From assembly GCF_988243305.1 (NCBI RefSeq), contig NZ_OZ547136.1: a stretch of DNA of 64,000 nucleotides, one strand, 5' to 3'. Positions 48,435 through 51,400 of this stretch are shown piece after piece. Within the stretch, counting starts at the first letter, position 1; each line of letters opens with the position of its first letter. Made by a program: the position numbers.

Positions 48435-51400
48435 TTAATTACGCCGACTGCTCGCTGGCAACGATCTTTTCAATGGACCACGGATGAAACTTAATAGTTG
48501 TTTTGCCATCGGTGACCGCCAGCGTCGGATTCGGTAATCGCTCATGCTCACCTTTTGGCGAACTGGTTTTCACTGAGATCCCCGGCAGGCTGAGTCCTTC
48601 ATCAGAAAGCAATGCCAGCGCACGGGCATTCAGCGTTTCTGGATCGCCCGGCAGAACGATTTCAATATGTTCCCAACCTTCGTGCGGGTAACGTTTTTCC
48701 CCGGGCCACGGTAGCTCCACAATGGAAAACTGCCAGTGCGCAACCTGTACCGGTTCATGCAATTTAAACAGACAAATCGGCCTGCCATTGATCATATTTT
48801 CTGACAAAAGCTCGCCGCACTGTTCAAACCCGCGACGCCAGCGTTCAGCGGTGACGTTTTGATGGCAACGCAAGGAAATGTGATCGGCAGTCAGCGGAGT
48901 GATATCCAACCCCAGACGGCGGGAAAGTTCATCTAATGCGTGGGTAAATCGCGGTAAATCCGATGCAATATCCTGCAGCTCGTCGATAGATTGCCAGTTC
49001 GCCATAATCACTCTTCGTCTTTCAGTAAAAGCGTTAATTTACCCTGTTGCCCTGCGCCAACCAACCGCTGATTTCACGCCGCTTCTGATGCAATAGTGAA
49101 AACGGCAATACGCCACGCGCACGTTGCTGACGAAAACAGCCATTTGCAGTATACTCCCGCCCTAATTTCTTTAACTGGTGCGGGCAATTTTTGCTCGCTT
49201 CATCAATGTAAGGTATTCCGGTGAATATTCAGGCTCTTCTCTCAGTAAAAGTCCGTCAGGCCATGATTGCGGCAGGCGCGCCTGCGGATTGCGAACCGCA
49301 GGTTCGTCAGTCAGCAAAAGTTCAGTTCGGCGACTATCAGGCTAACGGCATGATGGCAGTTGCTAAAAAACTGGGTATGGCACCGCGACAATTAGCAGAG
49401 CAGGTGCTGACTCATCTGGATCTTAACGGTATCGCCAGCAAAGTTGAGATCGCCGGTCCAGGCTTTATCAACATTTTCCTTGATCCGGCATTCCTGGCTG
49501 ATCATGTTCAGCAGGCGCTGGCGTCCGATCGTCTCGGTGTTGCTACGCCAGAAAAACAGACCATTGTGGTTGACTACTCTGCGCCAAACGTGGCGAAAGA
49601 GATGCATGTCGGTCACCTGCGCTCTACCATTATTGGTGACGCAGCAGTTCGTACTCTGGAGTTCCTCGGTCACAAAGTGATTCGCGCAAACCACGTCGGC
49701 GACTGGGGTACTCAGTTCGGTATGCTGATTGCGTGGTTGGAAAAGCAGCAGCAAGAAAACGCCGGTGAAATGGAGCTGGCTGACCTTGAAGGTTTCTACC
49801 GCGATGCGAAAAAGCATTACGACGAAGATGAAGAGTTTGCCGAGCGTGCACGTAACTACGTAGTCAAACTGCAAAGCGGTGACGAATATTTCCGCGAGAT
49901 GTGGCGCAAACTGGTCGACATCACCATGACGCAGAACCAGATCACCTACGATCGTCTCAACGTGACGTTGACCCGCGATGACGTCATGGGTGAAAGTCTC
50001 TACAACCCAATGCTGCCGGGTATCGTGGCGGACCTGAAAGCAAAAGGTCTGGCAGTAGAAAGTGAAGGCGCGACCGTCGTATTCCTTGATGAGTTCAAAA
50101 ACAAGGAAGGCGAACCGATGGGCGTGATCATTCAGAAGAAAGATGGTGGCTATCTCTACACCACCACTGATATCGCCTGTGCGAAATATCGTTATGAAAC
50201 ACTGCATGCCGATCGCGTGCTGTATTACATCGACTCCCGTCAGCATCAACACCTGATGCAGGCATGGGCGATCGTCCGCAAAGCAGGCTATGTACCGGAA
50301 TCCGTACCGCTGGAACACCATATGTTCGGCATGATGCTGGGTAAAGACGGCAAACCGTTCAAAACCCGTGCTGGCGGTACGGTGAAACTGGCCGATCTGC
50401 TGGATGAAGCCCTGGAACGCGCACGCCGTCTGGTGGCAGAGAAAAACCCGGACATGCCAGCTGACGAGCTGGAAAAACTGGCTAACGCGGTTGGTATTGG
50501 TGCGGTGAAATATGCGGATCTCTCCAAAAACCGCACTACCGACTACATCTTCGACTGGGACAACATGCTGGCGTTTGAGGGTAATACCGCGCCATACATG
50601 CAGTATGCTTACACGCGTGTATTGTCCGTGTTCCGTAAAGCAGAAATTGACGAAGAGCAACTGGCTGCAGCTCCGGTTATCATCCGTGAAGATCGTGAAG
50701 CGCAACTGGCAGCTCGCCTGCTGCAGTTTGAAGAAACCCTCACCGTGGTTGCCCGTGAAGGCACGCCGCATGTGATGTGTGCTTACCTGTACGATCTGGC
50801 TGGTCTGTTCTCTGGCTTCTACGAGCACTGCCCGATCCTCAGCGCAGAAAACGAAGAAGTGCGTAACAGCCGTCTGAAACTGGCACAACTGACGGCGAAG
50901 ACGCTGAAACTGGGTCTGGATACGCTGGGTATTGAGACAGTAGAGCGTATGTAATCGCGTTATACGGCAAAAGCCGATGTCATGGCAGACATCGGCTTTT
51001 TTATCATTAACGATAATTCACAATCACTTCATTCCGTTGTACCTTTAGCGGCGGAATTAATCGCCCACCGCCAGGCACTTCCCAGATAAATCGCAACGGT
51101 TCTATCGCCGGTATACCGGAAAAGGCCACGGTGGTTCCACTTTGCCCTTCTAATTCGACACAACGAGATTGCGAACACAAGCGAACCCGCAATCCTGCAG
51201 GTGTCGGACCGATAAGCTGATAACGCCACGCCACCAGCGTCATCAATCCTGAAGCAGGTTGTCGAGTAGAAAGAGGCGCTGATGACATCGACTCACCACG
51301 GTGATTCAGCGTAACGCCCACACTACTCGCCTGCCACATCCCCTCCCCGGCGGCTTGCACCAGCAGCGGAAACAATAATATTGCTAATAAGGTTCTCATC

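Follow-up and report, generated by a model that had tools for sequence, protein, structure and literature searches.

The argS–flhE junction

The window analysed here is a 64-kb stretch (64,000 nucleotides) of contig NZ_OZ547136.1 from assembly GCF_988243305.1. Within it argS and flhE converge on a short spacer (Table 1). The initial annotation had placed the two genes only about 50 bp apart. The last base of the argS stop codon is 50954. On the minus strand flhE stops with TAA at 51007–51009, which leaves a spacer of exactly 52 bp. Its sequence is tcgcgttatacggc-AAAAGCCGATGTC-atggca-GACATCGGCTTTT-ttatca and it contains a single strong hairpin, AAAAGCCGATGTC-atggca-GACATCGGCTTTT(TT), which starts 14 nt past the argS stop codon and 6 nt past that of flhE.

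Table 1. Features of the argS–flhE junction in the window.
Feature	Position	Strand	Description	Basis
argS	49221..50954	+	Arginine–tRNA ligase, 577 aa; stop codon TAA at 50952-50954	ORF list; RefSeq annotation of NZ_CP062824
argS–flhE spacer	50955..51006	.	52 bp; short allele, without yecV–yecT	Sequence; alignment with K-12
Hairpin	50969..51000	+	Predicted intrinsic terminator; 13-bp stem, 6-nt loop ATGGCA	Fold; terminator scan
flhE	51007..51402	-	Final gene of the flhBAE flagellar operon	ORF list; Pfam; RefSeq annotation

The ArgS protein of the window is 99.5% identical to that of K-12, and FlhE matches the Pfam family PF06366 (FlhE) with E = 1.9e-41. FlhE has 130 residues as annotated in RefSeq (51007–51399) or 131 if translated from an upstream ATG (51402). 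Over 1,052 bases around the junction Escherichia coli O169:H41 (NZ_CP062824) has 100% identity to the window, and its RefSeq gene order, torZ-torY-cutC-yecM-argS / flhE-flhA-flhB-cheZ, confirms the gene names. In the window flhE ends in two tandem in-frame stop codons, TAA-TGA (51004–51009, minus strand). The K-12 gene uses a different TGA, located at the boundary of the islet described below.

The hairpin as a probable terminator

Bidirectional intrinsic terminators between convergent genes display a symmetry of A-tract and T-tract about the stem. The junction in the window is similar in that one hairpin rich in G+C, bordered by an A-tract on one side and a T-tract on the other, lies between convergent stop codons. 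It differs in that the tracts are uneven, with six T on the argS side against four on the flhE side. The core of the hairpin is a 9-bp stem (GCCGATGTC/GACATCGGC), lengthened by four A–U pairs. A 76-nt stretch folds at −26.4 kcal/mol on the plus strand (z = −4.5) and −25.7 kcal/mol on the minus strand (z = −4.9), and none of 200 shuffles of this stretch folded as stably; the hairpin by itself folds at −20.3 and −21.4 kcal/mol.

A bidirectional terminator had been proposed at this position, and towards argS the proposal stands. On the plus strand the core stem is followed by TTTTTTAT, which provides six U (TTTTTT(A)). Here the features of an intrinsic terminator are all present, with a stable G+C-rich stem–loop after the stop codon and a U-tract 3′ of the stem, and the consensus terminator scan, with a threshold of at least five T in eight bases, calls the hairpin on this strand only. 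For argS the hairpin is a predicted Rho-independent terminator of textbook form.

The opposite direction is less clear-cut. On the minus strand AAAAAA lies ahead of the stem and UUUUGCCG after it; the sequence GGC-UUUU-GCCG offers only four U (TTTT(GCCG)), and the consensus scan makes no call towards flhE. Taken together, the short U-tract and the missing call suggest that transcripts of flhBAE may terminate poorly at the hairpin or need Rho. It is plausible that flhBAE also terminates here, probably less strongly than argS; terminator activity, especially towards flhE, is inferred.

The perfect 13-bp inverted repeat, conserved between species, might alternatively be read as a REP-like repeat, a small RNA or a protein-binding palindrome rather than a terminator. 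We consider this very improbable, because the hairpin is single-copy in the 64-kb window even when up to three mismatches are allowed, and so lacks the dispersed copies that define REP/BIME elements. No Rfam family matches the hairpin; the only nearby hit is located inside argS, with E = 0.47 and a score far under the gathering score. A hairpin that directly follows two stop codons and is bordered by A and T tracts has, in addition, the canonical layout of a terminator.

The K-12 allele

According to the initial annotation, K-12 carries yecT between argS and flhE. Strain MG1655 does so, and carries yecV as well: the order is argS (b1876)–yecV (b4778)–yecT (b1877)–flhE (b1878), with a spacer of 784 bp. 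The gene yecV consists of 14 codons on the minus strand and yecT is on the plus strand. K-12 YecT matches Pfam PF07007 (LprI, lysozyme inhibitor family) with E = 1.1e-17, in agreement with the RefSeq name. The G+C content of the yecV–yecT islet is 37–39%, compared with 53% in both argS and flhE and 51.6% in the window as a whole.

When the window is aligned with K-12, homology ends three bases past the argS stop codon and restarts at the flhE stop codon. The two loci have the same flanking genes in the same convergent orientation, and their flanks display about 96–97% nucleotide identity, but what lies between is different. K-12 has a 784-bp islet of 39% G+C with yecV, yecT and separate terminators, whereas the window has 52 bp and one hairpin; the flhE stop codon is TGA in K-12 and TAA in the window. 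K-12 thus does not have the junction seen in the window, and the suggestion that yecT is missing from the latter is borne out by the searches. Neither tblastn nor blastn detected yecT-like or islet-like sequence in the 52-bp spacer or in the whole 64-kb window, chance hits apart, and the window has no ORF with similarity to the LprI domain (PF07007), either at the junction or outside it.

In K-12 the yecT promoter is activated by BglJ–RcsB, and yecT is partly repressed by H-NS/StpA, with expression moderately increased in an hns stpA mutant (PMC3950696). Such a response to H-NS/StpA is typical for A+T-rich foreign DNA. The islet combines two properties expected of horizontally acquired DNA, namely an atypical base composition and a patchy distribution (67% of E. 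coli genomes). The hallmarks of a mobile element are without support, as neither a target-site duplication nor terminal direct or inverted repeats were found at the islet boundaries. We also considered whether yecT might be plasmid-borne and rejected the idea; there are only four matches, all to chromosome-sized or otherwise dubious 'plasmid' records.

Three short similarities at this locus deserve comment. K-12 has an exact 11-bp direct repeat, GATAATTCACA, with one copy at the stop codon of yecT (L001 2957–2967) and another at the flhE 3′ end (3086–3096), the latter precisely where homology with the short allele restarts. This repeat could be due to chance, for which we estimate about 0.1 occurrences per kilobase region, or could be a trace of the joining of the islet. 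The argS terminators of both alleles have the motif AAAGCC..GAT...ATC..GGCTTTTTTAT in common, which could result from homology or from convergence. Finally, one arm of the K-12 yecT terminator (caagACATCGaGCcTTTTTcac) looks like the right arm of the hairpin in the window, which might have pointed to entry of the islet at the hairpin loop. Since E. whittamii and Escherichia sp. E1V33 match less well here (aacatgaagcc and aacatggagcc), we took the similarity as a coincidence between terminators and rejected such an insertion.

Distribution of the alleles in E. coli

The argS and flhE flanks are present in 5,425 of the 5,426 complete E. coli genomes that were sampled. A short junction of the window type, defined by at least 95% identity over 82 bp, was found in 1,781 of the 5,426 (32.8%), with at least 99% identity over these 82 bp in 679 of the 1,781. 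The K-12 yecV–yecT segment was found in 3,642 genomes (67.1%). Together these make 5,423, consistent with two alleles that exclude each other, here termed short and long. The initial annotation had ascribed the absence of yecT to this strain; the gene is indeed absent, but the absence is not peculiar to the strain. The yecT-less junction is a common, lineage-associated presence/absence variant carried by about a third of E. coli genomes.

These counts also bear on the quality of the window itself. Nothing spoke for an artefact of assembly or collapse behind the absence of yecT. Such an artefact is extremely improbable, given that the same junction is present in 1,781 independently finished complete genomes, one of them a strain with 100% identity to the window over 1,052 bp.

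Genomes with the short allele include CFT073 and JJ1887, extraintestinal pathogenic strains of phylogroup B2; those with the long allele include K-12, O157:H7, O55:H7, O111 and O103. The junctions of CFT073 and JJ1887 are like that of the window in having the same 52-bp short allele and hairpin. CFT073 differs from the window by three substitutions in the spacer, which affect the A-tract, create a G–U wobble atop the stem and alter the loop, and its predicted hairpin is weaker (−15.5 compared with −20.3 kcal/mol).

Several further observations were made in these genomes. About 150 of the 5,425 match less than 80% of the junction query; in some of them the argS half alone aligns, which indicates that the flhE part has been lost or moved. 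In one strain, N25, the yecV–yecT islet is interrupted by IS1. Only 13 of the 5,425 genomes match positions 50455–51506 of the window with at least 99% identity, most falling between 95 and 99%, so the argS/flhE haplotype of the window is comparatively rare, even among strains with the short allele.

Other Escherichia species

A scan for FlhE provided 80 species-level loci, a set in which E. fergusonii, E. marmotae (by that name) and the GTDB E. coli representative are not included. Short junctions were found in E. albertii (L005) and in the lineage L002. Both have the core stem GCCGATGTC/GACATCGGC as in the window, with a longer and different loop. The stem is thus retained with differing loops in CFT073, E. 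albertii and L002, and the substitutions in it keep the pairing, with A–U changed to G–U in L002 and C–G to U–G in CFT073. The long allele, with its yecV–yecT islet, is present in E. whittamii (L004) and Escherichia sp. E1V33 (L003), which are probably the closest Escherichia relatives of E. coli.

Recent import of one of the alleles was considered and rejected, since the flanks do not cluster by allele. The islets of different species are 94.5% and 91.9% identical, values akin to the divergence of the flanks. A lack of clustering by allele, combined with islet divergence that tracks that of the flanks, indicates that both alleles are old. Either the polymorphism outlasted speciation or the alleles were swapped by homologous recombination.

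The lineage L002 (NZ_JAATUR010000018) is labelled Escherichia coli strain SCPM-O-B-8794. Its identity to E. coli is about 92% for argS and about 90% for flhE/flhA, which makes it as distant as the named cryptic Escherichia species, and it is probably a separate species-level lineage. In E. albertii and L002 the first codon of the tandem stop is CAG or CAA (Gln; positions 4394–4399 of the loci), so that FlhE is one residue longer there and stops at TGA.

The junction outside Escherichia

In most other genera of the Enterobacteriaceae about 3 kb separate flhE and argS (L006–L081; for example 4657–7384 in L010 and 4657–7722 in L007). Such a gap was seen in Salmonella, Citrobacter, Enterobacter, Kluyvera, Atlantibacter and Kosakonia. 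In this gap lie genes for an MFS_2 transporter and a GH88 glycoside hydrolase, to which Salmonella and some Citrobacter add a paralogue of a penicillin-binding-protein transpeptidase. In four Enterobacter/Lelliottia species the cassette has been lost and the junction has independently collapsed to about 60 bp.

The arrangement of the Salmonella/Citrobacter/Enterobacter type has the same flanking genes in the same orientation as Escherichia, and there too the site is variable. It differs in its cargo, about 3 kb of unrelated sequence, and in its argS terminator (AAACCCGGC...GCCGGGTTT). The presence of the cassette of about 3 kb in most genera marks the junction as a recurrent site of gene turnover.

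Proposed origin of the two alleles

We consider it highly probable that the junction in the window is the short one of two alleles distinguished by the presence or absence of yecV–yecT, with a hairpin terminator between the genes, and that the short allele is the older and the islet was acquired. In this model the one G+C-rich hairpin, flanked by its A-tract and T-tract, would serve as the Rho-independent terminator of argS, and the same hairpin would also terminate flhBAE from the opposite side, probably less efficiently. The K-12 allele instead has the 784-bp A+T-rich islet, which supplies a separate terminator next to argS, the tiny gene yecV, and yecT together with a promoter and a terminator of its own. 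Within Escherichia the short junction most likely came first, and the yecV–yecT islet would have arrived by horizontal transfer, as an insertion or a replacement. Thereafter both alleles would have persisted across several Escherichia species or been exchanged between them by homologous recombination through the conserved flanks.

The anatomy of the junction, the frequencies of the alleles, their spread over species and the base composition of the islet are direct observations. Three points favour the short allele as the older one: the islet is low in G+C, the short allele retains no trace of it, and E. albertii and L002 have conserved the same hairpin. From these we infer that the polarity is that of an insertion, not a deletion. 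Since E. whittamii and Escherichia sp. E1V33 have the long allele, though, a single gain on the species tree is insufficient without recombination or incomplete lineage sorting.

The reverse polarity would make the short junction a derived deletion. The Escherichia ancestor of E. coli would have had yecV–yecT, and the lineage of the window and B2 strains such as CFT073 would have lost the islet, leaving a new terminator. In favour of a deletion, the islet is carried by E. whittamii, Escherichia sp. E1V33 and two thirds of E. coli genomes, and it is old, since its divergence parallels that of the flanks. Nevertheless, the 52 bp of the spacer are not contained in the 784-bp islet, with which they do not align beyond generic terminator motifs, and the same stem is found in E. 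albertii and L002, where independent deletions would not be expected to recreate it. The 39% G+C of the islet also points to a foreign origin. We regard a deletion as unlikely, and prefer acquisition of the islet by an ancestral short junction.

A more speculative idea, and one we hold to be improbable, is that the terminator-only allele and an H-NS-silenced allele with the LprI-family islet represent an ancient trans-species balanced polymorphism kept by selection. If true, the persistence of both alleles would be due to selection, acting for instance on the envelope or lysozyme defence, or on read-through into flhBAE, rather than to neutral drift and recombination.

Implications

The variation at this junction is a common accessory-gene polymorphism that can already be seen in public annotations, and the terminator is a standard one. 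The yecT-less junction implies no new mechanism and, taken by itself, matters little. It does serve as a reminder that yecT is an accessory and not a core gene of E. coli, and that the gene order of K-12 should not be assumed for other lineages. As a small descriptive addition, the argS–flhE junction, beside the flagellar region, is a place of recurrent gene gain and loss across the Enterobacteriaceae.
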